DNA from: a plasmid
Length of the DNA stretch: 64,000 bases
Direction: 5' to 3' (one strand)
Sequence record: CP128686.1
Shown here: piece after piece, positions 5,399-64,000 of the stretch
How the letters are laid out: every line of letters begins with the position of its first letter
Numbering within the stretch: position 1 is the first letter of the stretch
Notes under the pieces: model-generated
What the model was told of the DNA's origin: nothing
Database searches by the model: none
Seen by the model: only the letters and a program-made list of their open reading frames with translations
Position numbers and translations under genes: made by a program

Positions 5399-6412
5399 TC
5401 AATTCATCGTGATGACCACTTTGCCAGTATGTTGCTGGCTTTCAAAATATCGCCATGCTTCAACAGCATGTTCAAACTCGAATACCCTGTCTATAACCGG
5501 CTGAAGCTGACTTTTTACCAGCGCCCGATTCATAGCGACAAAATCCTCGCGGCTGCCAACACTGAAAGGTCTTACAGTTGCGCCACTTTTGAACAAAGTC
5601 ATAAAATCGACTGATGCACTTCCCTGTGCAACAAAGCCCAGCAGAGCAATTTCCCCTCCCGGCGCTGCGGAGAGTAAAGACTGATTTAAGGTTCCCGGCC
5701 CGCCAATTTCCACAATACGGTCAACCCCCCTGCCTTGTGTCAGTTCCCGGACTTTTACTGACCATTCAGGATAATGTCGGTAATTGATGACATGATCGGC
5801 ACCAAGCGCCGACAATAGCTGTGCTTTTACATCATTTGACGTTAACGCAATAACGCGTGCCCCCATGATTTTGGCGAACTGCACCGCAAACAGTGAGACT
5901 CCACCTGTGCCCTGGGTAAGCACAGTCTCTCCCGGTAATACAGACCGCGACTGTTGAAGGCTGTTCCATGCTGTAACTGCTGCGCAAGGGAGAGTGGCAG
6001 CCTGTTCCCAGCTCAGGTAATCAGGTACAGAAACCAGAGACTCTTCATCAACCACTTTGTATGAGGTTAACCATCCATCGGCCTGAGTGCCATAAGTTCC
6101 TCTCCCTGCAGCGGCATCCCGTGCTCCACCAAACCAGTGAGGAAAGAAGGTTCCCACAACCCGATCCCCCTTTTTAAACAGGCCCACAGAATCGCCTGTA
6201 GCCACGACCTCACCAGCCCCGTCCGATAAAGGGATCAGCCCGGCTTTAGGGGTTAATGTGCCTGTTCCGTACAGAATGGCCAGATCACGATAATTAAGAC
6301 TACAGGCGCGGACCTTTATCAGAACCTGATTACGCCCGGGGACTGGCTGCTGTTCCTCAATTAACTTCAGTCCTTGTAAACTTCCGAAACTCTCAAGTCG
6401 ATAGCTATGCAT
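5399..6412 (-). CDS. Zn-dependent alcohol dehydrogenase/NADPH:quinone oxidoreductase (MDR superfamily)
   Basis: GxGxxG Rossmann fold (GGPGTLN...), MDR catalytic-domain pattern. Confidence 0.7.
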   Translation of the reverse strand: MHSYRLESFGSLQGLKLIEEQQPVPGRNQVLIKVRACSLNYRDLAILYGTGTLTPKAGLIPLSDGAGEVVATGDSVGLFKKGDRVVGTFFPHWFGGARDAAAGRGTYGTQADGWLTSYKVVDEESLVSVPDYLSWEQAATLPCAAVTAWNSLQQSRSVLPGETVLTQGTGGVSLFAVQFAKIMGARVIALTSNDVKAQLLSALGADHVINYRHYPEWSVKVRELTQGRGVDRIVEIGGPGTLNQSLLSAAPGGEIALLGFVAQGSASVDFMTLFKSGATVRPFSVGSREDFVAMNRALVKSQLQPVIDRVFEFEHAVEAWRYFESQQHTGKVVITMN

Positions 6413-40907: not shown

Positions 40908-41120
40908 TCAGGACTTATAAAGTTGTATCCAGCTGATAATTTCATCAAGCTGCTGGTTGTCCAGTTGGCCGCAGTTTTCAAACACCGCTGCAGCTACGAT
41001 ACCCTGCATTCTCTCGGTTGACGAACCTACACCAGCAACCGCTCCCATTCCCTGTCTTCCATCATCTGTCAGCACTCCTCTGCCGCTGCCGGTAAGAAAC
41101 TGCTTCGCTTCGATGCTCAT
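40908..41120 (-). CDS. Hypothetical 70-aa protein
   Basis: ORF track. Confidence 0.25.
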   Translation of the reverse strand: MSIEAKQFLTGSGRGVLTDDGRQGMGAVAGVGSSTERMQGIVAAAVFENCGQLDNQQLDEIISWIQLYKS

Positions 41121-41227
41121 TTATTTTCTCCATAACATAGTAGGTGTTAATTCTGTTAAAGCGCTCGCCCCTCAGGCCAGTTCGCCACTTTCGGTGATAA
41201 GCGTGAGAACAAGCCGGGTATTCACAC

Positions 41228-41596
41228 TCAGAGAAATGGGATCTCAAAAAATTTATGGATGGTTCGTTTTTTATCGATACGTGCCTGTCGCCACGTCTGT
41301 AAGTCCGGGCCTGTGTCCGCCATCCTGACGGCTTCAACAGATAATACCTTATATTTGCCCTGCTGCAGTGGCACGCCAGGCCAGCGGCGTATGGGGGCGT
41401 CTATCCACAGACGGGAGTTCTTAAGTTGGTCGACGGTGATCCATTTTTCTGACCATGCATAAAATTTCTGGCATCGCAGCTGATAGCATCGCTCTTCTTC
41501 CCGTCTTTTCCAGTCGCTGTCTACAGCAAACGTTCGGAGATCAATAAGAATCTCATGGACTTTGCCCATACCTGCTCTTCCCCGGAATGTCGTCAA
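41228..41596 (-). CDS. Hypothetical 122-aa protein, possibly a truncated prophage-type gene
   Basis: ORF track. Confidence 0.25.
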   Translation of the reverse strand: MTTFRGRAGMGKVHEILIDLRTFAVDSDWKRREEERCYQLRCQKFYAWSEKWITVDQLKNSRLWIDAPIRRWPGVPLQQGKYKVLSVEAVRMADTGPDLQTWRQARIDKKRTIHKFFEIPFL

Positions 41597-42471
41597 TATC
41601 CAAGGTATCAGGTCATGGCCGTAACGACCAGCAGCTCCAGGGGGAATAGTCCGGCCAGTACCGGCACCTTACCCTGAATTGATGTCTACTGTATGCGATA
41701 TATTTGGGAAAACTGGCGATGGCTATTCTCCTGATTCTGATCGCCGGCAAGCGTTCCAGGCAGCAAAAGAGCCTGCGTAAGACAACATACCCTTGAGGGT
41801 CCTGACCTTCAACGTGCCCGACCCGGCCCCCGCCGCGCGGACGAAAAAAAGAGAAAAATAAAAAAAGAAAAAAAGAATATGCCGAAAATGTGCACAGTCG
41901 CGACCCACGCAGAGCGTGGCGCTCCGGGGCAAAGGCTTTGCAGGGCTATAAGGCATGTTGTCTTACGTTTTGAGTGTGATGGTCCGATCCCACCAGCTTT
42001 CATGAATTGTCCCGCCGGGTGGACTGCTATAAAGTGCATTCCTGCACTGCAGCCTCTGCCGGTGATGAAGAATAATTCCGTCCGGCGAGTATTGAGCAAG
42101 ACCTTCACTACGTATTAAAACCTGGAACTCCGGGATGACGATGCCTGAGGTGATTTACCACCGGGAGTAAAAATTCGTTTATGGCGCCAGCAGCTGGTAC
42201 CTGGCAGAGTTAAGTTCTTATCGCAAAGGATGATAAAAATGAGCCATGGCAAATGTGAGCCGACAAACACGAATGCCGCCGATTACAAGCTGTACGCGCG
42301 ATTCGATGCTGGTGAAACGCTTGAAAGCGTTTTAGCCTCTCCACCGACCACGAAGTACAATAAAGTAACTTCTGAAGGAAACATCAGGACAGAACACAGA
42401 ATGTGGATGGCGTGGAGAAAGAAGCATCCCAGACCACTCTGATTATCAGTGTCGATTAATAAGGATAAAAC

Positions 42472-42786
42472 ATGCGAACGACAAGTATCACCCTGTGTCT
42501 GGTTTTGGCGAGTTTTGGTGTATCCGCTAAAATCCTTGCAGACCCAGACCTTACTTACCAGGCAAATAAAACGTGTGCTAAACGAGATGTACTGGAACTG
42601 AAAGTCCCTTTAGAAGCCAATAATCCCTCCTCCCCCACATGGGGTTTGGACAAGGGCATGGTGCAGGCCACAATTGACGCACTGAAAGAAAATCCAGACA
42701 TCGCCCCGGCTGACTCTGTAGCCTGCCAACAGGCTGCAATAAAACAGTATCGGGCTGGGCAAAAACACTACAGTAAGCTCAGGTAG
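42472..42786 (+). CDS. Small secreted protein with a signal peptide
   Basis: MRTTSITLCLVLASFGVSA. Confidence 0.4.
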   Translation: MRTTSITLCLVLASFGVSAKILADPDLTYQANKTCAKRDVLELKVPLEANNPSSPTWGLDKGMVQATIDALKENPDIAPADSVACQQAAIKQYRAGQKHYSKLR

Positions 42787-42993
42787 CTGCCGTGATGCCC
42801 ACCAGCTGAAACCTGTGTGTGGTATAAAAAACCCCGTAGCGCTGGTGCAAAACAGACCAGCGCATTCCAGTTCTCAATCCCGTTCTGTGCTGTAGGCCCC
42901 TGTCGCATTCAGACCTGAATTACCGAGCAAGGAAACATGTCAGTAAGCCATCTGGATACAAAAACTGGTGGTATAGCCACTTTAGCGTAATGC

Positions 42994-43015
42994 TAATGTA
43001 TGCGTACATTAGCTT
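42994..43015. promoter_or_regulatory. 22-bp near-perfect palindrome GCTAATGTATGCGTACATTAGC
   Basis: Seen in the sequence; the reverse-complement copy is at 43534-43555. Confidence 0.5.
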
Positions 43016-43029
43016 TAAATTTATGTTAT

Positions 43030-43512
43030 TTACCCTTCTCCCTTCCTGGATGCCTTAACCTTGATCTGATAGTTGCGCTTTACCCGCTCAATTTCCGCCA
43101 GAGTTGCCGCCCAGTGCAGCCCTGCGGCGTGACGATATCTGGTTGCCATTTTTTCAACGGCCTCCGGAGTGCTGTCATCGCTGCGGTGCTGCCGTCCCTT
43201 CACCCCGAAAATTTCCACTATAAGCCACTGGCTACCGGTTCTGCCGAACAAGGCCTGACACAGCCGCCTCACGGCAAGCGGGGTCAGATCCGGGTCGGGA
43301 TCATACGCGATGGTGGCAAAAATAAAACGCAGCATCTCAGAGGTTTTGTAGCGTTTTACCGCTGCCGCCAGCCGGGCAGCTCTTTGCGGCGCTTCCCAGC
43401 GGTCGTCGCTGTAACCTGCCACTTCAGAGAGATAGTCCTTCTCGAGTTGTTTAGCCGTGTAGCAACGTCCCCCCAAAAACATCCGCATAGCTTCTTTCGT
43501 TTCAGCTCTCAC
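43030..43512 (-). CDS. Hypothetical 160-aa protein flanked by two 22-bp palindromic sites
   Basis: ORF track; flanking palindromes. Confidence 0.4.
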   Translation of the reverse strand: MRAETKEAMRMFLGGRCYTAKQLEKDYLSEVAGYSDDRWEAPQRAARLAAAVKRYKTSEMLRFIFATIAYDPDPDLTPLAVRRLCQALFGRTGSQWLIVEIFGVKGRQHRSDDSTPEAVEKMATRYRHAAGLHWAATLAEIERVKRNYQIKVKASRKGEG

Positions 43513-43533
43513 GAATCTTGTCCTCAGCCAAAG

Positions 43534-43555
43534 CTAATGTACGCATACATTAGCA
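43534..43555. promoter_or_regulatory. 22-bp palindrome GCTAATGTACGCATACATTAGC, the partner of 42994-43015
   Basis: Seen in the sequence. Confidence 0.5.
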
Positions 43556-43679
43556 TTAAGTATCAGGTTAAACAAAAATCAGGAAACCGATTTGATTCAG
43601 TGCAGGTGGCTGTCTCTTTTGAATTATAGCTTTTGCGTTCTGGTATACAGGTTACCCCTCCCCCCTCTTTTCCCGCTGG

Positions 43680-46600
43680 TCTACTGTAGTCGACACAAAA
43701 GACAGGAACCTCGGTATGTCCTGATAATTTTGTTTGAGTTTTAATCACGAAGCAGAGGGTATCGCATATAGTAGACACAACGCAGCCAGAATAACGCTCG
43801 ATGCAAAATTTAGATCGTTGTCGCCTACAGTAGACATTCCTGGTTTCGACGCTGGTGCTTCCAATACTGACCAGTCCCGGGCCATGGCATAGCATCCAAT
43901 AGAAATAGTGATTTCCTCCACCAGCTTTCCTTAAAAAGCTTACATTTACGGATAACCTCACCACAGCCGCACATACCAGCCAATGGCCAGTATGATAGTT
44001 GTAGCATGCAGTAGACCTTTACCCTCGAGGCTTCCCTGGTTGTCGCACACAGTAGACACATTATGTCAGCCACCAGTACGACCGGTATTATCCGGCCCCT
44101 GAACAAAAACTCGAATACAGTAGACCTTCGCCAAATATGTTGGGGTCGCACACAGTAGACATTAAACGTGGGTTTACAACATATCTGGCGCTTCCCGGCT
44201 ACCAGGCAGAGCGTCGGATACAGTAGACCGTTACCATCTCTGCCAGGTCTCACTGGTTGTCGCATACAGTAGACAGTAAATTCTTTCCACCACGGAAAAC
44301 CGGCACTGATCCGCGATTTAATCGGGCATCAAATACAGTAACCCATTGCCTTCAGCACCTACCCGGTGTGTGGGTTGTCGCATCCAGTAGACACCCGTTG
44401 TTCCTGCCCGGCAGAACCGGCGATGCCCGGCCTTTTAACCGGACATCGCATATAGTAGACCATTGCCTTTCAGAACCTACCCGGTGTGTGGGTTGTCGCA
44501 TCCAGTAGACACCCGTTGTTCCTGCCCGGCAGAACCGGCGATGCCCGGCTTTTTAACCGGACATCGCATACAGTAGACCATTGCCTTCAGCACCTACCTG
44601 GTGCGTGAGTTGTTGCATCCAGTAGACACCCGTTGTTCCTGCCTGGCATAACCGGCGATGCCCGGCCTTTTAACCGGACATCGCATACAGTAGACCATTG
44701 CCTTCAGCACCTACCTGGAGCGTGAGTTGTCGCGTACAGTAGACACCCGTTGTTCCTGCCCGGCATAACCGGCGATGCCCGGCCATTTAACCGAACATCG
44801 CATACAGTAGACCATTGCCTTCAGCACCTACCCGGTGTGTGGGTTGTCGCATCCAGTAGACACCCGTAGTTCCTGCCAGGCATAACCGGCTATGCCTGGC
44901 CATTCAACCGCACGTCGCATACAGTAGACCATTACCTTTCAGAACCTATCCGGTACGTGGGTTGTCGCCTACAGTAGACACCCGTTGTTCCTGCCCGGCA
45001 GAACCGGCGATGCCCGGCCATTTAACCGGGCATCGAATACAATAGACTATTGCCTGTCAGCACGTACCGGTGCGTGGGTTGGCGTATGCAGTAGACACCA
45101 GAGTTGTTCGTAACCTGCATAACCGGCAAGGATCGGCTATTTCAGCGCACGTCGCATACAGTAGACCATTGCCTTCAACATCGGTCCGGTGTCTCGCTTG
45201 TCGCATCCAGTAGACACCCGTTGTTCATACCTGGCAGAACCAGTGATTCTCGGCCATTTAACCGGGCGTCGAATACAGTAGACCATTGCCTGTCAGCACC
45301 TACCGGTGCGTGGCTTGGCGTATACAGTAGACACCAGTTGTTCATAACCTGCATAACCGGCGAGGAACGGCCATTTAACGGCACGTCGAATACAGTAGAC
45401 CGTTCTCCCACTAGCGCATATCCACTTGAGTTGGCCGTCGCATACAGTAGACACGAATAGGTAGCCTCCAGCACTGATCAACCATAGCCCGGTATCGCAT
45501 ACAATAGACCTTCCCCTATTTGGGCATAACCGATATGCGGTGATTGTCGCATACAGTAGACATAGATTCTTAGCCACAGGCTTAACAGGGATCATCGTGA
45601 CGTAAACGTCTTCAGCAAGCAGTTCGAGCAAAATTCTTAAGCTCCTTCCACTAATAGCCGCCCTATCTCAAACACCGCAGCTGAACGCCCCGACTTAACC
45701 GCTTCGACTTTATGATCGTCAACAAACCAGTGATTACCGTCCGTTCGGACCAGCTCAAACAGCCAGGACATATCGTAAACGTGCTCAGGGATTAGCGTCC
45801 CTTCTCCGGCCAGAATGCCAGCCGTTATTGAATGATTTCCGCCACCCACAAAGCCAATACGCCAGGGCAACCATAGCTCAACATAATGATTGCTATTATC
45901 CTGCTTCCACGGCTTCCCCTTATAGCTTCCAATACGTGAAACGTTATTGATAAAGCGTTGTAGGCTCCAAGGCCACGGCAGCACCATATCACTTGCCAGT
46001 GACAACGGGTAATCAGCGCCGTCCATCTCATGTTCTTTCATCTTTTCATACGATTTCACATGGATAAGCCCTTCAAAGAAGAACTTTTCAGGGGTCATAT
46101 TTGGTCGGGCATCTGTTCCTTCCTCGGCTACCGCCAGCAAGAAATCACTCTGTACTGGTCGCACGATAGCGCGAATGAGATCAGGCAGCGTCATGACAGG
46201 TAATTTCTCGGCCACCGAAAGCAGGTGATCGAAGCGCTTTTTTTCATTGCCGGTTGCTGCTTTCTCTTTCTTTTTTTGGTTCCAGAACATCACTTGCCGT
46301 GCCCTCCTTATCGTGATGATGATTTTCATGCTCATGCTGCGGTAGTTCTACATAGCGCACATGTTCTTCATACGTGGTGTAGTTATGCATGCCGCTATAA
46401 TCCGGGTCTACGTCAGAACTCCTCTCATCGTCCTTGTAGAACAGCAAACGTATACCGGTGTCCGGTTGTGACGCATGTCGCATACTGTAGACAATATGCG
46501 ATCGCAATCATTAAAACGCCCCTGTTCTGTAGCCATGGCAGTATTGAAATACGATAGGCCATTATCCACCAGCTCATACCCTATAGCGTGAATGGCCGCA

Positions 46601-46850
46601 TACAGTAGACATATACAATACACCACCGATAAATGCGGACCTGATCGAACATTCAACCGGGTGCCGCATACAGTAGATCGTCACCCGGCAGCACACCCCA
46701 GATTGAGATACTTGTAGCGTACAATAGACATCTGTCTTTAACGGCCACCTGCTTTTACCAACAGCATTCAAATATCGCATACAGTAGACATTTGTATTCC
46801 GTAGGGCTAATCGCGGTTCGCATGTCGCGTACAGTAGACTTTCTACCAGA
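43680..46850. repeat. Iteron field of more than 40 copies of the core (C/A)A(G/T)TAGAC(A/C). It includes about nine tandem composite units of 110-120 bp at 44389-45560.
   Basis: Repeats seen directly, for example gtcgcatccagtagacacccgttgttcctgcccggc... recurring. Confidence 0.8.
45637..46335 (-). CDS. Hypothetical 232-aa protein embedded in the iteron field
   Basis: ORF track; real-looking codon usage. Confidence 0.4.
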   Translation of the reverse strand: MSMKIIITIRRARQVMFWNQKKKEKAATGNEKKRFDHLLSVAEKLPVMTLPDLIRAIVRPVQSDFLLAVAEEGTDARPNMTPEKFFFEGLIHVKSYEKMKEHEMDGADYPLSLASDMVLPWPWSLQRFINNVSRIGSYKGKPWKQDNSNHYVELWLPWRIGFVGGGNHSITAGILAGEGTLIPEHVYDMSWLFELVRTDGNHWFVDDHKVEAVKSGRSAAVFEIGRLLVEGA

Positions 46851-47128
46851 CGAATTTACAAAACAGGCAACAGAAGACAAGCTCATGCATCATGGCAAAA
46901 AAGAAAAGTTACTTTCCTTCTTAGGAACCTGATGTGAAATTCACCGGCAGTTTCAGCTGAGCCACTACGTTTTCAAAAACTTTCACTGAAGTTGGAAGGT
47001 GTTACGACATGTCAGCGTTACTTTTGGTGTGTTTAACGTACAATCCGATAGCACTTTGTAGAGAACAATCCCCGGGTTCGACTGAAGAGGGCCCGTAAGC
47101 CCCCTCAGAGCGATTGTCGGAGGACTTT

Positions 47129-48028
47129 CTACTTCAGGGAGGGATTTCTCTTGATGATTTGAAACGCTATCTTGTTGCCTTCCTTAAGCTCCTGGTATTC
47201 AAGGTATCCAATGTCCTCCAGTTGCTTAAGTGCTTTTCTTACCGTTGAATTCTGAAGAGCGGGTCTGGAAGTGAGGGACAAACGCTTCCTGAACCTCTCA
47301 ATGCTGACAGGGATCGGATTAGGTGGCAGAGCCTCAATGAACGTATAAAGGGCCTGGGCTGACTCTTTCCTTGCAAGGGCTTTAAGGGCTCTCAGCTTAA
47401 GCAGGATCTTGTATTCACCAACATACAGATCCTTAAGCGTTTTCGACGGAGTGAGGATAACTTTGTCATTACCAATGTCCACGGTTGACTCACCAATGAG
47501 CTGAACAAATTTAGTGACTTCAATGTTTGTGCCTCTGTCCTTGGAGAATTCAACAACATTAGACATCAGTTTCCTGAGCGAATCTTTGATTTTTTCCCGA
47601 AATTCAGCCTTCAGACGTCCACGAGAAAAACCACATCGCATAGCAAACTCAGTAAATCGGATCGAGATAGTCCCATCCTCGTTAGACTCGAGTTCATTAT
47701 CGGTCAGTACCGATATGATTCCTGTCCAAACCTTGAAATCCGTATCCATGTCTAGCCTTGGACCTGAAATGGTAATCCTTTCAAACCCTTCGGATTTGGC
47801 TAGCTCCAGATGCCTAAGATCGTCTGACGCGTTGATGTTTGATCCGACATTGCTTTTCTTAGCGATCGCTTTGTTCGTCGACTTTAATGTTGGAACAAAG
47901 ACCCCCAAACGCATCAGAGGAACTGTCTGTACACTGGTCTCCGATGTGGAAGAAAGTGTGATAACTTCACCAGTAGTCTGATTTATTTCTTCTACATTTA
48001 GGTATGACTCATTGATTTTGTTAGACAT
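47129..48028 (-). CDS. repA: Iteron-type replication initiator RepA (Rep_3, RepFIB/IncHI1B-like)
   Basis: Motifs shared with RepFIB initiators (PLMRLGVFVPTLKS, ISGPRLDMDTDFKVW, ESAQALYTFIEALP); iterons on both sides. Confidence 0.7.
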   Translation of the reverse strand: MSNKINESYLNVEEINQTTGEVITLSSTSETSVQTVPLMRLGVFVPTLKSTNKAIAKKSNVGSNINASDDLRHLELAKSEGFERITISGPRLDMDTDFKVWTGIISVLTDNELESNEDGTISIRFTEFAMRCGFSRGRLKAEFREKIKDSLRKLMSNVVEFSKDRGTNIEVTKFVQLIGESTVDIGNDKVILTPSKTLKDLYVGEYKILLKLRALKALARKESAQALYTFIEALPPNPIPVSIERFRKRLSLTSRPALQNSTVRKALKQLEDIGYLEYQELKEGNKIAFQIIKRNPSLK

Positions 48029-48065
48029 TTCCCTTAAACCCTAAGTTTTGAATAACCATCAAAAA

Positions 48066-48175
48066 TATAGCATACAGTAGACACTTTTATAGCGCACAAT
48101 AGACAATATATAGCATTCAGTAGACTGTTTGTAGATTACAGTAGACATTTCGTAGCATACAATAGACACCGATCA
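48066..48175. repeat. Four to five iterons (..ACAGTAGAC/ACAATAGAC..) spaced about 22 bp apart, immediately upstream of repA. This is the probable origin.
   Basis: Seen in the sequence. Confidence 0.65.
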
Positions 48176-48348
48176 CCTTCCAAGCCAAGCGGCACAGGGC
48201 CTCCAGCGATCCGGGATCTTTTTGGTACTCTCTGGATCCTTTATGGATCAGTTATTGGATCTATCCTGTGGAAAACCTACTGCGGAGAAACTGCTTTACT
48301 ATCTACATCCTCGGCTTAGGAAAAGATACCGGACGCAGATTGAGAAGA

Positions 48349-49410
48349 TCACTTATTGGGATCATGAGTGAGAAACCAATCATGGAAAGCTCTCTCGCGA
48401 TCAAACTCTGGTAAGTTATGTATAGACACGTTCCAGTTCGCGATTTTAACTATGAAGCTAATGTATTCCTGCTCCGCCTCATTCAGTCCTCCCTCTCCCC
48501 TTTTACTGATGTAATAATCGTACCAACGTTCATACGCGGGTACGTTTATAGATTCCCAGGAATCCAGCATCCTCGGTGCATAGGATACCAGTTCATCAAA
48601 AACGGTACTCCCTGAAGGTATATCCGGCCGGGTAAGTTTAGCGAGTATTTCTATTGTCCATCGTAAATGTTGCCATTGCTGTGCAGGTGCCAGAGGCAAC
48701 GAATTCATATTCATGGGTAGATCTACCGGAATCATAGAAAGCAGCTGGTTGCCGCTGGCATTCAGGTGGCGTTTGTACTGATGTAAAGTATGTGGTGGTG
48801 CTGTCTGCATTAAGGGATGGTAGATCCACCGCTTGGCTTCATCTGAGGTGAAAAGTAACTTTTCTATCGCATCCATCATCTTTATGCCTTCCCCATTCTC
48901 ACGATATGGAGCGATGATACTTTCAATCCGAACGGCATCGATCTCCACCAGCGCCAGCTGGTCTGTTTGCGCTAACAGGTCTGGATTTGGCTGGATATCC
49001 TCCGACGTATCATTAATAAATATCCCGATTGTCGTATCGTTACATATCCCTGTGAGGTCAGCATTAAGGCCACAAACAATCCCACCACCAGCGAGATTTT
49101 TGAGGTTAACTATCCCTTTCTCCTTACCCTGCAGAAGATGAGGGAGAGCAAGGTATTTTTTTTCCTGTATTTTCACCTTTATGTATTTTTTTATATGTTG
49201 TAGTGTGAGCTCACTACAAACCCCTTTTACTTCTGTGCTGTGGCTAAAATGCCATTTTTTATTTTGACCCTGCCTGGCAATCAGGGAGGTCCCACAGATG
49301 AGGCAGATACAGTTACACGAAAGCCCATTTTCAACGCTGGCGATATCAACAATTTTATTTGAATCCGTATCAAATCCAAACGGGATCCATTTTTGTGCAT
49401 TACGTCGCAT
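48349..49410 (-). CDS. CoiA-like protein (competence protein CoiA family), with an N-terminal CxxC..HFSH zinc-finger-like motif
   Basis: CNCICLICG...KKWHFSHS pattern typical of CoiA. Confidence 0.45.
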   Translation of the reverse strand: MRRNAQKWIPFGFDTDSNKIVDIASVENGLSCNCICLICGTSLIARQGQNKKWHFSHSTEVKGVCSELTLQHIKKYIKVKIQEKKYLALPHLLQGKEKGIVNLKNLAGGGIVCGLNADLTGICNDTTIGIFINDTSEDIQPNPDLLAQTDQLALVEIDAVRIESIIAPYRENGEGIKMMDAIEKLLFTSDEAKRWIYHPLMQTAPPHTLHQYKRHLNASGNQLLSMIPVDLPMNMNSLPLAPAQQWQHLRWTIEILAKLTRPDIPSGSTVFDELVSYAPRMLDSWESINVPAYERWYDYYISKRGEGGLNEAEQEYISFIVKIANWNVSIHNLPEFDRERAFHDWFLTHDPNK

Positions 49411-49495
49411 GTATATTCCTCGTTAAAAATGAGTAAAGGAATTCTACATCATCCGTTTTTATCAAACCTGGAATAACAGCGTCTAATTACATTAT

Positions 49496-49750
49496 TCATA
49501 TCTCATCGGGGATGAGATGCCACACGGAAGCAGGTATTTTGTCATAGTTTTTTTTCATGTAGATCTCAGCCCTGCGGTGATCATAAGCTCCGTTCAGGCT
49601 GGTTATCTTATTTATATCCCCACCTTCATCATTTAATTTATCCAGGATACGCTCAAACACTCTGTCAAGGGTTTCAGTCGTACTGCACTTTCTGAACTTC
49701 AGGAGATAGGCTTCTCTCAGGCTACTGTGCGCATTTGGGCTTTTCAACAA
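49496..49750 (-). CDS. Hypothetical 84-aa protein
   Basis: ORF track. Confidence 0.25.
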   Translation of the reverse strand: MLKSPNAHSSLREAYLLKFRKCSTTETLDRVFERILDKLNDEGGDINKITSLNGAYDHRRAEIYMKKNYDKIPASVWHLIPDEI

Positions 49751-49927
49751 CGACGCTCTGGTGCATGTTCAAAAACACTGGCTATTTTCGAAAACAGTAA
49801 ACGAAGTTCCACGCACAGGCAAGAGAAGCAATTTGATTAATTTCCTGTTCTGCCTGGATTTGAAAAAAAACAATGTTACCATACTGGTTATAAAAACAGT
49901 ATCAGTAAAAAAACATGAGATCTTCCC

Positions 49928-51064
49928 ATGACAGATAAAACCAAACTGGTTGCTATCTCACGAACCGATGACATGAGCGCTCTGGATGCACTCAAGCTGT
50001 TGCGGTTTCGCCGGTACAATACAGCCAGAAGTCAGTTAAGGGTCACGAGTGTCTGGTCTGCATGGTGCGCCAGGCACGGTCTGACCCCCTTCCCCGTCAC
50101 AGCGGTTGATGTCGAGCGCTATATTAATGGGCTGAATGGATCCGTTAAAATGGCGACCATCTCTCATTTTATTGCATGCCTTTCAAGCGTTAACAGCAGC
50201 CTGGGTTTTCCAGACTTCCGCAACGTTCTGATAAAAGCACTGGTTCAGGTATGGCGGGCGCGGGAGAATGAGAAAAAAATCGTCACCGGCCAGGCCCTTC
50301 CATTTCTTATATCCGATCTCAATATTCTTCGCCGGTCGCTGCATAAAAGCGACGACCTGAGAGACATACGGGACCTTGCAATGATATGGGTTGGGTTTGA
50401 AACCCTGCTGCGTAACGTGGAAATTCGAAGGATTAAAACCGGCGACCTGAAATGGCAAAATGACACGTCCTGTTACCTTCTGGACGTCATGCGGACCAAG
50501 ACAAGCCTTTCAAGTAACCTGACATTTCAGCTCTCACCACAATGCAGTCAGCATATCAGACGGTTGATTGAGACGGTGGAATACACCGATACCGAAACCT
50601 TCGGGCACCGTTTTCTTTTTCAGCCTGTAAACATCCATACGAACCGATATTTCCCGTCCACCAGCAGTAAGCTATCCCGGGGTAAATCCATAGACAGGAT
50701 GCTGGTCAAAGCAGGATTCAGTGAGGGGTTACTGACGCAGTTACAGAATGAATCAAAGGTATCACGGGAAGATGTTGGTATGCTGTCGTCTAATTCACTG
50801 AACCAGGCATTTGCACGCCTCTGGGGGATTGCCGGAAAGGTCAGCGACAGTAACCGACAGTCCGGGCGGTACCGGACATGGACAGGACACAGTGTGCGTG
50901 TGGGGGGAGCCATAGAGCTGTTTAAGGCCGGGTACTCCCTGGAAAAGATTACCGAGATGGGGAACTGGTCTGATCCAAAGATGGTCTTCCGTTATATCCG
51001 GGGATATCTTGCCAGTGAAAAAGCCATGGTAAGCTTTATGCGTAATCATCTGGACGACATATAG
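49928..51064 (+). CDS. Tyrosine site-specific recombinase (phage-integrase family)
   Basis: C-terminal R..HSVRVGGA..Y catalytic motifs. Confidence 0.7.
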   Translation: MTDKTKLVAISRTDDMSALDALKLLRFRRYNTARSQLRVTSVWSAWCARHGLTPFPVTAVDVERYINGLNGSVKMATISHFIACLSSVNSSLGFPDFRNVLIKALVQVWRARENEKKIVTGQALPFLISDLNILRRSLHKSDDLRDIRDLAMIWVGFETLLRNVEIRRIKTGDLKWQNDTSCYLLDVMRTKTSLSSNLTFQLSPQCSQHIRRLIETVEYTDTETFGHRFLFQPVNIHTNRYFPSTSSKLSRGKSIDRMLVKAGFSEGLLTQLQNESKVSREDVGMLSSNSLNQAFARLWGIAGKVSDSNRQSGRYRTWTGHSVRVGGAIELFKAGYSLEKITEMGNWSDPKMVFRYIRGYLASEKAMVSFMRNHLDDI

Positions 51065-57006: not shown

Positions 57007-57064
57007 GTAAGCGTTAAGTGAGCGCCGTATTGACGGTTATTTATCGGTAAGAACCACGTTCCAT
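57007..57064. repeat. 58-bp tandem duplicate of the IS66 terminal inverted repeat (GTAAGCGTTAAGTGAGCGCCGTATTGACGG...)
   Basis: Exact repeat of 57065-57122. Confidence 0.8.
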
Positions 57065-57095
57065 GGTAAGCGTTAAGTGAGCGCCGTATTGACGG

Positions 57096-58688
57096 TTATT
57101 TATCGGTAAGAACCACGTTCCATGGCAGCAGTTCGGCCACTTTGTTGCTGGGCCACTCCGGCAGTACGCTCAGGATATGGCGAAGGTAGGCTTCCGGATC
57201 GATACCATTCAGCCTGCACGTCCCGATCAGTCCGTACAGCAGGGCTCCGCGCTCACCACCGTGGTCGCTGCCGAAGAAGATAAAATTCTTTTTCCCAAGA
57301 CAGACGGCACGAAGGGCTCGTTCGGCAGCGTTGTTATCAGGCTCTGCCAGGCCATCTTCACAGTAGTAGCACAGCGCATCCCACTGGTTCAGGACATAAG
57401 CGAACGCTTCGCCCAGACGGGACTTTTTCGACAGCGTCTCATTTTTTTCTACCAGCCATTCATGCAGCGATGCCAGCAGTGGTTTGCTTTGCGATTGTCT
57501 GGCTGCCAGACGCTCTTCTGTCGTGAGGCCGCGTATTTCTTCTTCTATCGCGTACAGCTCACCGATACGTTTCAGGGCTTCTTCTGCTGTCGCTGTGTGA
57601 GTGCTTATATAGACATCATGGATTTTTCGGCGGGCATGGGCCCAACATGCGGCTTCTGTCAGCGGCCCTCCTTCACGTTCCGGACTGAACAACCGATCGT
57701 AGCCTGCGAAGGCATCCGCCTGCAGCACACCATGATAGTGGCGAAGGTGTTGCTGAGGATGTTTTCCCTGCCGGTCTGGCGAGAAGGCGAACCATGCCGC
57801 TGGCGGATCTGATGAACCTGCGCTTCTGTCGTCACGTACATACGTCCAGATACGCCCGGTTTTCGTCTTCTTTCTGCCCGGTGCAAGCACCGGAACCGGA
57901 GTGTCATCCGTATGCAGTTTGTGGCAGTCCATCACGTAGTGGTAAAGGGCCTCATCCAGCGGGGCCATTAACCGGCAACAGGCATCCACCCAGTTGGAGA
58001 GCAGAGCCCGGCTCAGATCCACGCCCTGACGGGCAAAGATTTCGCACTGGCGATACAGCGGCAGGTGTTCGCAGTATTTGGCCGTTAACACGCGGGCCAG
58101 CAGACCCGGCCCGGCGATACCCCGATCGATGGGACGTGATGGCGCAGGTGCTTCAACGATACAGTCACATCGGGTGCAGGCCTTTTTCACCCTGACCGTG
58201 CGGATCACTTTCAGGGCGCTGGAGACCAGTTCCAGCTGCTCCACGCTGACTTCGCTGAGGTACGCCATACCGCTGCCGCATTCCGGACAGCTGGTTTCCG
58301 CAGGATCCAGCCGATGTATCTCGCGGGGAAGGTGTGCCGGTAACGGGCGACGATGGCGGGACTGACGTAACTGGCGAGGTACCTGCGGATCGTCTTCCCG
58401 TCCGTTGTAGCGATCGCTTTGCTGCTCCTGCTGTTTCAGCAGGGCTTCGGCTTCTTCAACCTGTCGGCGAAGTTTTTCGGAGCGGGTACCGAACAACATT
58501 CGACGCAGTTTTTCTATCTGTGCCCGCAGATGCTCTATCTCGCGCTCTTCGTTCTCTATTTTCTCTTCTGCGCGGGCCAGTGCAGAACGCAGGAACGACT
58601 CAGTCTCTGCAACGAGACTGAGCTGACTGTCTTTCTGGCGAAGCGCGTCTTCCAGCGCAGCGATACGGGCGAGATAGTCGTGATTCAT
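57096..58688 (-). CDS. IS66 transposase TnpC
   Basis: Zn-finger CPECG.., DDE domain. Confidence 0.85.
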   Translation of the reverse strand: MNHDYLARIAALEDALRQKDSQLSLVAETESFLRSALARAEEKIENEEREIEHLRAQIEKLRRMLFGTRSEKLRRQVEEAEALLKQQEQQSDRYNGREDDPQVPRQLRQSRHRRPLPAHLPREIHRLDPAETSCPECGSGMAYLSEVSVEQLELVSSALKVIRTVRVKKACTRCDCIVEAPAPSRPIDRGIAGPGLLARVLTAKYCEHLPLYRQCEIFARQGVDLSRALLSNWVDACCRLMAPLDEALYHYVMDCHKLHTDDTPVPVLAPGRKKTKTGRIWTYVRDDRSAGSSDPPAAWFAFSPDRQGKHPQQHLRHYHGVLQADAFAGYDRLFSPEREGGPLTEAACWAHARRKIHDVYISTHTATAEEALKRIGELYAIEEEIRGLTTEERLAARQSQSKPLLASLHEWLVEKNETLSKKSRLGEAFAYVLNQWDALCYYCEDGLAEPDNNAAERALRAVCLGKKNFIFFGSDHGGERGALLYGLIGTCRLNGIDPEAYLRHILSVLPEWPSNKVAELLPWNVVLTDK

Positions 58689-60180: not shown

Positions 60181-60544
60181 TATATTTTGTGATCGGACAA
60201 CGTGACAAACGACATCACAGTGGAGACACTGCTGACGAGGTGATCCCAAGGTCGTAAAACGGCCGGAACTGGTTACCGGCCGAACGAAGGACCGGCCTAC
60301 GCGCAGCGGCGACAACTGGCTTTAAAAATGCTGGCGGAAATTTAAAATTAAGCCGCATACCCTGCGAAATTTTGCAGATTTCACTCAACATGCATGCTTC
60401 GTTCATTTCCCAACAGAGCTCTCACCATCGCCTGTAATAGCAGTCCTGCTGCGTGATTACTCCGCTCAACGGGTCACCGGCGCCATGCCAATACCTGTTC
60501 GTGACAGGCATTGATGGAACTGCGATCCCAAACTAATAATGTAA

Positions 60545-61034
60545 CGACGATGCAGGTGGGACCGTGGTCCCAGGCTGAAAACCTAAACGACGATACAGGT
60601 GGGACCGTGGTCCCAGGCTGAAAACCTAAACGACGATACAGGTGGGACCGTGGTCCCAGGCTGGAAGCCTAAACGACGATGCAGGTGGGACCGTGGTCCC
60701 AGGCTGAAAACCTAAACGACGATACAGGTGGGACCGTGGTCCCAGGCTGAAACCTAAACGACGATGCAGGTGGGACCGTGGTCCCAGGCTGGAAACCTAA
60801 ACGACGATGCAGGTGGGACCGTGGTCCCAGGCTGGAAGCCTAAACGACGATGCAGGTGGGACCGTGGTCCCAGGCTGGGAGCCTAAACGACGATGCAGGT
60901 GGGACCGTGGTCCCAGGCTGGGAGCCTAAGCGGCGATACAGGTGGGACCGTGGTCCCAGGCTGGAAGCCTAAACGACGATGCAGGTGGGACCGTGGCCCC
61001 AGGCTGAAAACCTAAACGACGATGCAGGTGGGAC
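60545..61034. repeat. sopC: sopC-like centromere: twelve 43-bp direct repeats, each with the inverted repeat GGGACC-GT-GGTCCC
   Basis: Repeats counted directly; same architecture as F-plasmid sopC. Confidence 0.85.
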
Positions 61035-61133
61035 CGTGGTCCCATAGAGAGTATTCAGGCCAGTTATTTTTTCTGGCCTGTGAGAAAGGAAATGAAGTAA
61101 AGGGAGATAACCGTAGACTAAAGCGTGTCCGCA

Positions 61134-63399: not shown

Positions 63400-63975
63400 G
63401 AAGAGAGGCTCAATCACATACCGCAGTCAATATTTCTCACTACCGCTCGCCGCAGTAAGCGATCTCACGAAGTGAGGAAGTGGAAAAGCACAGAGACTGC
63501 ACAAAGCACGAACGCTACGATGCCGGATACTTCTCCGGATTAGTCTATCTTCATGAAATTGACTGTGATATGTGAAAAATTGACTATGGTATGAAACTAA
63601 AAGCCGAGGGCTGGTCAACAACAAAAGAAGATTCTACATATCGCAGTCAATATTCAATGTTAAATCAGGGAGAGTTACTCATGCGGCATTCAGATTACCC
63701 TTGCAGAACCCCGAATGTGGTGGGGTAGATCTGGCTGGGGATTAACGTTATTCATTGCTTCGATCCAGTAATTGATCCCAAAGAGATCATATCGAGATCC
63801 TAAAGAGATCCCCGGATCGTTGCAGCAGGCGCTATAACTGGCTTGAGCGTCATACTGGATCGACTGTGGAATGTAAAAAGTTGACTGCTGTATGCGAAAT
63901 CTAATACTGTGATATGCAACGGTATTTACTGAGGTATGTATATCCGTTGACTGCGATACGTATAACGACATTCTT
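63400..63975. promoter_or_regulatory. sopA promoter/operator region with at least five copies of the motif TTGACTG(C/T)GATA(C/T)G in both orientations
   Basis: Motif copies at about 63416, 63551, 63571, 63628, 63881 and 63951. Confidence 0.55.
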
Positions 63976-64000
63976 TTGTGGATAACCGTTGAGGATCAAG

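Follow-up and report, generated by a model that had tools for sequence, protein, structure and literature searches.

The plasmid of sequence record CP128686.1, of which a 64,000-nt stretch (hereafter “the window”) was analyzed, carries an extensive field of iterons on both sides of the Rep_3 initiator gene repB1. A single 15-bp motif is shared by a set of origin iterons upstream of this gene and by proximal and distal sets that together place 36 sites downstream of it. We propose that the field consists of RepB1 binding sites and that the 36 downstream copies form a greatly expanded control and incompatibility locus, which would act by handcuffing and by titration of the initiator. We assign this reading a probability of roughly 0.68. 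That RepB1 binds these sites, that handcuffing takes place, and that copy number and incompatibility are affected is what we infer from the architecture of the locus, its conservation, and analogous replicons. The elements concerned are listed below, with positions numbered from the first nucleotide of the window.

47129-48028, minus strand: repB1, encoding a 299-aa Rep_3 initiator with WH1 and WH2 domains (WP_004026560.1)
48066-48168, plus strand: origin iterons, five copies 21-22 bp apart, or about two helical turns (Tandem Repeats Finder: period 21, 4.9 copies)
48171-48275, no strand assigned: origin accessory region, with six GATC sites and one DnaA-box-like match
46478-46839, plus strand: proximal control iterons, six copies with core starts at 46485, 46603, 46671, 46722, 46782, and 46832
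43762-45561, plus strand: distal control-iteron array, 30 iterons that share the orientation of those at the origin (weight-matrix scan and unit alignment)
44316-45401, plus strand: homogenized center of the distal array, with 9.2 copies of a 117-bp unit that contains two iterons (Tandem Repeats Finder)
43679-43693, minus strand: inverted iteron TCGACTACAGTAGAC, the left boundary of the field (weight-matrix scan)
41684-41698, minus strand: strong inverted iteron (31 bits) that stands alone, 2 kb left of the array

The abundance of the motif is far beyond chance. The 10-mer ACAGTAGAC(A/C) occurs 24 times in the window compared to an expectation of 0.13, and this count was reached in none of 100 dinucleotide-preserving shuffles. 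A 24-column weight matrix was trained on every CAGTAGAC-like site at 41-49.5 kb and applied with a cut-off of at least 14 bits. It identifies 42 sites in the window, spanning 41684-48167, whereas 20 shuffles yielded a mean of 0.15 and a maximum of one. The information-rich portion of the motif is 15 bp long, T(C/A)GCATACAGTAGAC. By group, the RepB1-type iterons comprise five at the origin, six proximal, 30 distal (28 strong and two decayed, the latter at 43897 and 44336), and two inverted. The isolated inverted iteron at 41684 has a conserved counterpart at the equivalent position in four relatives (L036, L037, L044, and L045).

The initiator itself is recognized by both Pfam models for its family (Rep3_N, 34.7 bits against a cut-off of 22.4; Rep3_C, 23.5 bits against a cut-off of 21.1), and annotation pipelines label it either “RepB family” or “RepFIB replication protein A.” A sequence search of the PDB with RepB1 gave nothing meaningful, and thus no relative of solved structure. 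The origin iterons begin 38 bp upstream of the repB1 start codon and probably overlap the promoter of this gene. Next to them lies a cluster of six GATC sites within 90 bp (48171-48261), compared to a window average of 4.2 per kb. A minus-strand match to the DnaA box at 8 of 9 positions, TTTTCCACA, follows at 48267-48275, although near-matches to this box are barely enriched across the window as a whole (22 against 14.3 expected). The A+T content at 48150-48400 reaches only 0.40-0.60 in 40-bp windows. Judged by these sequence elements, the five iterons, the GATC cluster, and the DnaA-box-like site would make up a putative origin (origin 1) that resembles the type known from P1 and RepFIB.

In PLSDB, 239 records carry the gene with its origin at a nucleotide identity of at least 98.9%. 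Almost all of the hosts are Klebsiella, with a few Escherichia, Raoultella, and Pluralibacter. The PLSDB records listed with repB1 measure 114 to 428 kb, and the sampled records overall measure 114-433 kb. Because repB1 and the origin iterons are intact in every sampled plasmid, and the gene is this closely conserved across the 239 records, we argue for a working replicon rather than a relic.

The downstream iterons are organized quite differently from those at the origin. Their mean spacing is ~58 bp, and they reside in DNA of 52% G+C that is without origin features. Within the distal array, Tandem Repeats Finder detects the 117-bp unit with 84% matches (score 1411-1440) and also calls a higher-order period of 235 bp. 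Alignment of the units resolves 13 of them at 43828-45445, each with one iteron ending in ...CAGTAGACA(CCC) and one ending in ...CAGTAGACC(ATTG). Each unit opens with an A-type iteron, GTCGCAT[A/C]CAGTAGACA. The C-type iteron, ATCGCATACAGTAGACC, comes 68-70 bp later, and a further 35-52 bp leads to the unit that follows. The proximal iterons, spaced by 118, 68, 51, 60, and 50 bp, repeat the 68/50 rhythm of the distal array. The central units are near-identical, whereas the spacers of the outer units can no longer be aligned, and yet both iterons and the 68-70-bp step between them are kept there.

Much of what a preliminary description of this DNA had reported withstands this analysis. More than 40 copies of the core had been claimed, in agreement with the 42 matrix sites against a shuffle mean of 0.15. 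Nine or more composite tandem units of 110-120 bp had been seen, and these correspond to the 9.2 copies of 117 bp. The two iteron variants per unit recur as the A-type and C-type sites in each of the 13 aligned units. Copies are indeed present on both sides of the rep gene, with five upstream (48066-48168) and six plus 30 downstream. The units are also iteron-related, given that their 15-bp motif forms the set of five at 21-bp spacing upstream of a Rep_3 gene. Other particulars need correction. The spacing had been given as 55-120 bp, but in the distal array it is 35-70 bp, with ~68 and ~49 bp in alternation, and distances of 112-119 bp occur only at decayed copies. Similarly, the homogeneous core had been placed at 44389-45560 rather than at the 44316-45401 called by Tandem Repeats Finder. 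Finally, the left limit of the field lies at 43679, with one isolated site farther out at 41684.

Neither a protein-coding repeat nor a structured RNA is supported. Neither strand has an open reading frame (ORF) of 50 aa or more at 44508-45104, even though the repeat period is a multiple of three. No Rfam family was matched at E ≤ 1 in a search of 41000-50000, and a promoter and terminator scan of 43500-48400 returned counts at or under the shuffle expectation. Two units folded as single-stranded DNA gave a z-score of -3.4 that derives from short G+C hairpins in the spacer; these hairpins are set aside because the diverged units do not conserve them.

Position-by-position comparison reveals what has been preserved. 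A-type and C-type sites agree at 0.88 of positions within the 15-bp motif but at only 0.28 in the flanks. Corresponding values are 0.86 and 0.31 for the distal array against the proximal six, and 0.80 and 0.23 for the distal array against the origin five. Even the diverged outer units, when compared to one another, retain an identity of 0.89 in the motif, whereas their flanks match at the random level of 0.29. Motif identity is thus far above flank identity throughout, which indicates that the preserved entity is the iteron, and the same iteron as at the origin.

One systematic difference separates the origin and control sites. The nucleotide at position -6 is A in the five origin sites and two array sites, and C in 34 others. 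Consequently, the origin iterons read TAGC(A)TACAGTAGAC, compared to TCGC(A)TACAGTAGAC in nearly all control iterons (34 of the 37 non-origin sites carry TCGC). The split is likewise present in the related plasmid L005 described below, whose control form is TCGAC. Its occurrence across two array architectures hints at a functional difference, such as one in binding affinity or in monomer-versus-dimer binding mode. Why the in-phase origin iterons (TAGC) and the widely spaced control iterons (TCGC) contrast so systematically is a question that the locus itself poses. We speculate that the 21-bp packing at the origin serves to open DNA, and that the ~58-bp spacing in the array merely permits pairing.

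We applied the same weight matrix to the window and to 14 further plasmids with this repB1 (15 of the 239 PLSDB records). The distal iterons per plasmid number 30, 33, 33, at least 33, 27, 31, 33, 33, 33, 35, 29, 31, 20, 32, and 32, where the count of 20 reflects an array cut by a transposon (L284). None of the 15 sampled plasmids exhibits collapse to a small array. An intact repB1 and all five origin iterons are present in 15 of 15, the six proximal iterons are kept in every one, and the repB1 protein accession is identical in the 10 annotated records. Growth and shrinkage of the array by unequal recombination between its units would give a tunable brake.

In four plasmids, mobile DNA separates repB1 from the downstream iterons. 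In L042 the intervening DNA is an IS66 element, in pCAV1015-114 it is a Tn3-like element of 6.5 kb, and in L286 it is an IS3-family element; L285 has the same extra length as L286. Several Klebsiella pneumoniae plasmids match the 4.9-kb region at 100% identity, including NZ_CP107353.1, whose annotation over the matching 64-kb stretch comprises a pLVPK-type backbone, the ter operon, tus, sopA/sopB, and transposons. The window likewise has backbone genes of the pLVPK type, namely the ter operon, tus, sopABC, and, at its right edge, the pLVPK-type repB.

Plasmid L005, from a Klebsiella sp. and with a RepB that is 97% identical, is especially informative. It carries ~37 downstream iterons with the core TACAGTAGAC, but these sit in a different, single-iteron unit of 58 bp and are broken by IS200-like, IS5-like, and IS30-like elements. 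Because L005 keeps the core within a different unit, the constant feature appears to be the binding site and its number. A comparison of its 58-bp unit with the 117-bp unit of the window therefore reveals two architectures with a similar number of sites. When the spacers of L005 and the window were compared for a second conserved motif, 2 of 20 alignment tests gave p = 0.01, which is unconvincing after multiple testing.

Beyond these plasmids, scans of metagenome and viral contigs for the exact 14-mer GCATACAGTAGACA gave, among the matches listed, almost only single chance hits. The only real replicon copy among the matches listed is L096, whose locus stops before the distal array. No account of this array emerged from literature searches on the motif or on iterons in connection with IncFIB, pLVPK, or repHI5B.

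The distal and proximal iterons are separated by a gene of a different nature.

45637-46335, minus strand: DUF6710 gene, between the distal and proximal iterons (Pfam PF20457, E = 7e-49)

We considered whether the product of this gene might be a replication factor, but this was ruled out by its absence from many plasmids that keep the array. The gene is deleted in L037, L041, L043, L044, L046, and L282 and is absent in L005, and the arrays remain. Because so many array-bearing plasmids are without it, we regard the gene as accessory cargo that lies outside the replicon. Homologues occur in 1700 PLSDB records, of which 1373 are conjugative, and in an MPF_T plasmid one comes straight after the genes for the coupling protein and the MobF relaxase. 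The corresponding UniRef cluster is named “Fip.” Together, the name and these sequence contexts suggest a FipA-like fertility inhibitor (for FipA fertility inhibition, see PMC5696584). No paper that mentions DUF6710 was found in the literature. The gene sits directly downstream of the six proximal iterons, and its expression might therefore be affected by RepB1 occupancy. Searches of NCBIfam returned nothing for RepB1, the DUF6710 protein, the 353-aa neighbour, or a 160-aa ORF, and PADLOC returned nothing for the latter three.

At the left boundary of the array, the window interval 43650-43903 recurs at 94-96% identity in the majority of the 1133 Klebsiella plasmid records matched by the array query. 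The records that share this boundary carry a different Rep gene (repHI3B- or IncHI1B-like) at the locus, in opposite orientation. Iterons at 43679 (minus strand), 43769, and 43828 survive even in such plasmids, as in L038 and L039, where the counterparts of the boundary lie at 6001-6202 and 6001-6255, respectively. The sequences suggest that recombination exchanged the replicon and that the RepB1 iterons at this boundary stayed in place as orphans. Separately, many relatives carry kop, a pgtE-like omptin protease gene, inserted at the left edge of the array, and the window is without it. In L036, L037, L043-L046, and L282-L286, kop is located between a 483-nt ORF and the array. The initial part of the array differs in kop-carrying relatives, with spacings of 41, 41, and 59 bp.

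We envision the following mechanism for the locus. RepB1 would occupy all 41 same-orientation sites. Protein bound at array sites would pair with RepB1 at an origin, whether on its own molecule, on a sister, or on a rival plasmid (handcuffing), and the array would additionally soak up free RepB1 (titration). As a result, origin 1 would fire rarely, and a plasmid of 110-430 kb would be held close to a single copy per chromosome. Strong incompatibility would exclude other plasmids that share its Rep. The preliminary description had offered copy-number control, incompatibility, or handcuffing as possible functions. Among the functions proposed, this one is best supported because of the layout shared with P1, mini-F, and RepFIB, the long arrays of sibling replicons, and a copy-number report for one such sibling; layout, conservation, and analogues thus favor the function, and the mechanism stays at the level of a prediction.

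The copy-number report concerns the “iteron-1 region” of pLVPK-type virulence plasmids, in which ten 34-nt repeats occupy 413 bp and which is present in one to three copies (PMC9602619). For the pLVPK repA, 0, 1, and 2 copies of this region were reported to accompany plasmid copy numbers of 3.00, 2.43, and 1.33, respectively (PMC9602619). The 42-bp array of the sibling replicons described below appears to be this same region.

Several points weigh against our proposal. The plasmid has a second replicon, repB2, and because of this origin 1 may not be what sets copy number. A very strong brake could mean that origin 1 is nearly silent. The near-identity of the central units is a sign of recent amplification, for which selection is not required. 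Titration alone is thought to be a weak form of control in autoregulated iteron replicons, so the proposed mechanism depends on the predicted handcuffing. Finally, three plasmids underlie the correlation between iteron-1 regions and copy number, and in two of them repA is truncated (PMC9602619).

The second replicon and the partition locus of the plasmid bear directly on the alternatives.

~63400-64000, continuing past the window end, no strand assigned: origin 2, with a GATC cluster, a DnaA box, and iterons
60543-61044, no strand assigned: sopC centromere, a 43-bp unit in 11.7 copies with the GGGACCGTGGTCCC palindrome, adjoining sopB

The preliminary description had not noticed this second replicon. 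The GATC cluster of origin 2 spans 63729-63860, and its DnaA box, a perfect match, occupies 63977-63985 on the minus strand. Its iterons belong to the CATACCGCAGTCAATAT type and lie at ~63419, 63557, 63579, 63640, 63879, and 63945. As seen in NZ_CP107353.1, the second RepB-family gene, repB2, starts one base past the window end beside sopA. It is the repB of pLVPK and pK2044, and the repB1/repB2 pair is also found in pCAV1015-114. One candidate set aside was a plasmid reliant on the repB1 replicon alone, which is the picture that MOB-suite conveys by reporting “IncFIB” only; the presence of repB2 beside sopAB overturned it.

This arrangement invites an alternative explanation in which the array serves mainly as a weapon between plasmids, or as a silencer. 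Under such a scheme, repB2 would drive replication, origin 1 would be kept nearly shut, incoming plasmids that use RepB1 would be excluded, and the array might also link the two replicons. The two Rep_3 replicons lie ~16 kb apart in NZ_CP107353.1 and in pCAV1015-114, and repB2 is far commoner than repB1 (2852 versus 239 PLSDB records). In addition, the downstream iterons of the Escherichia coli FIB replicon are a potent trans-acting displacement determinant (PMC11983097). One origin 2 iteron, TCGCATACAGCAGTC (63879-63900, minus strand), agrees with the RepB1 iteron in 13 of 15 positions, a sequence resemblance that makes cross-talk between the two replicons a possibility. Set against these points is the finding that repB1 and its five origin iterons are intact in every sampled plasmid. 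We consider this explanation unlikely, though by no means negligible, and it overlaps the control-locus proposal, since incompatibility amounts to that handcuffing as it acts in trans.

A more elaborate version can also be entertained. The array might be an initiator sponge or pairing platform that keeps origin 1 near silent, contacts origin 2, and rapidly tunes copy number through the gain or loss of 117-bp units, possibly with roles in pairing, tethering, or fork arrest. We judge this combination of functions to be distinctly improbable.

Neutral expansion is the next explanation to be weighed. Slippage or unequal crossing-over could have enlarged the array in a dual-replicon plasmid that tolerates it, in which case the extra copies would contribute nothing that the few initial control iterons did not already provide. 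The near-identical central units and their 235-bp higher-order period are what such a process might leave, and the number of distal iterons does differ among close relatives, from 27 to 35. Moreover, insertion sequences inside the L005 array and the transposon truncation in L284 have not led to loss of those plasmids. However, drift alone would not be expected to hold the iterons of the outer units at 0.89 identity beside spacers at 0.29, or to keep the A-to-C step at 68-70 bp. No collapsed array was sampled, a second architecture arrives at a similar number of sites, and the sibling replicons keep 18-24 copies. A purely neutral origin of the array is therefore very unlikely in our estimation.

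The least credible explanation is that of a second centromere-like, pairing, or tethering site, or of a polar fork barrier, similar to the family of repeats (FR) of Epstein-Barr virus (EBV): a large one-orientation array of initiator sites stands apart from the origin, and a backbone-encoded Tus shows that fork traffic matters on this plasmid, but sopA, sopB, and sopC are complete, no partition gene adjoins the array, its motif has no palindrome, and no Ter-like site was found in the window. The centromere suggestion made in the preliminary description is unsupported because a normal, canonical sopC lies at 60543-61044 next to sopB, whereas the array is ~15 kb from sopAB and lacks a ParB-type palindrome. 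Repeats of the 43-bp sopC type are reported to vary in copy number from 8 to 23 among IncFIB-4 plasmids (PMC8957301). The tus-like gene (“DNA replication terminus site-binding protein”) lies between the two replicons at ~51.7-54.6 kb, as mapped from NZ_CP107353.1 (record positions 161204-162163), and a simple Ter core search of the window found no Ter site. Elsewhere in the window, Tandem Repeats Finder also reports a perfect 59-bp direct duplication at 57007-57125 (2.0 copies, 100% identical).

If the control-locus proposal is correct, then a change in unit number by recombination would amount to a simple, heritable copy-number dial. How tightly low copy number is controlled bears on gene dosage, host burden, and the stability of large Klebsiella plasmids. 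Because the downstream iterons of E. coli FIB by themselves displace a resident plasmid (PMC11983097), the array might also be used to cure plasmids by way of incompatibility. Together with its relatives, this repB1 provides a natural series for relating control strength to iteron number, with 0-7 downstream copies in distant relatives, ~18-24 in siblings, and 26-41 here. The array is common in clinically important plasmids, is apparently undescribed, and is experimentally tractable.

Comparison with known replicons places the array at the extreme of a recognizable series. Among 29 distant Rep relatives from other species (40-48% identical), the origin has 3-5 iterons and 0-7 downstream iterons lie near rep, within ~400 bp of it, compared to the 36 that extend over 3.1 kb here. 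The field had initially been called exceptionally large, and this is justified relative to textbook replicons and to these distant relatives, but less so within its own Rep group, where arrays of 18-24 copies occur. For example, downstream of repHI5B in the IncHI5 plasmid p11219-IMP, whose product is 40% identical to RepB1, a 42-bp unit recurs 18.3 times. In L039, a repHI3B-like gene with a product 87% identical to RepHI5B has 42-bp repeats in blocks of 13 and 10.6 copies, and the core of these repeats is also found upstream of the rep gene. Because these siblings possess them, long downstream arrays seem to be typical of the group. Papers on IncHI5 plasmids refer to “repHI5B together with its iterons” but give no particulars. 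The array in the window is the largest and most elaborate example so far in its Rep group.

The window and its siblings (the repA of the IncHI1B/pNDM-MAR type and repHI5B) share a syntenic locus, in which rep is accompanied by the 353-aa hypothetical gene, hha, and an integrase gene, with tus at a greater distance. They also share a Rep_3 initiator at 40% identity to RepB1, a few close iterons upstream, and a long downstream array in one orientation (18-24 copies in the siblings) whose number of units varies. The preliminary description had suggested a comparison with RepFIB and IncHI1B plasmids; IncHI1B-like siblings at the locus carry the 42-bp arrays, and the layout matches that of RepFIB. 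There are also clear differences. The sibling iteron is of the CCCGCCAGCGTTGA type rather than TACAGTAGAC, and the gene orientation at the locus is inverted. Sibling units are 42 bp long with a single iteron, whereas the unit here is 117 bp long, with two variants in 68/49-bp alternation. Finally, the array here is split by a cargo gene and has more sites (26-41).

The resemblance to RepFIB (P307, F, and pO157) lies in the placement of rep between the origin iterons, BCDD'D'' upstream, and the control iterons, E-K downstream. The six proximal iterons hold the position of E-J within the RepFIB E-K set, and of incA in P1. In E. coli FIB, the downstream EFGHIJ iterons alone displace the replicon, which has been taken as evidence of handcuffing, and the downstream set is a control and incompatibility determinant in a layout shared with P1 and mini-F (PMC11983097). 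F retains its downstream FIB iterons despite having a weak FIB replicon (PMC11983097). Nevertheless, RepB1 does not belong to RepFIB in the strict sense, in that the nearest Escherichia relative found is at most 48% identical and has an iteron of the TTGTTGACTGT type (P307 itself lies outside this comparison). The labels “RepFIB” and “IncFIB” given by annotation pipelines and by MOB-suite may even refer to repB2 of the same record.

The same order of elements is seen in P1 (incC, repA, incA) and in mini-F (ori2/incB, repE, incC), which likewise have five origin iterons and a downstream iteron block. Their origins are GATC-rich and contain DnaA boxes, to which the putative accessory region at 48171-48275 may correspond. 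In both, the origin iterons overlap the rep promoter and the downstream block lowers copy number by handcuffing (Chattoraj 2000, as cited in PMC11983097). P1 incA has nine iterons and F incC has five, whereas 36 downstream iterons are present here and are arranged in higher-order tandem units. An array of this scale recalls, by analogy only, the FR element of EBV oriP, where ~20 EBNA1 sites stand apart from the dyad-symmetry origin and function in tethering, segregation, and fork pausing. Although that system belongs to another domain of life and employs a different protein, it likewise places a large array of initiator sites away from the start of replication.

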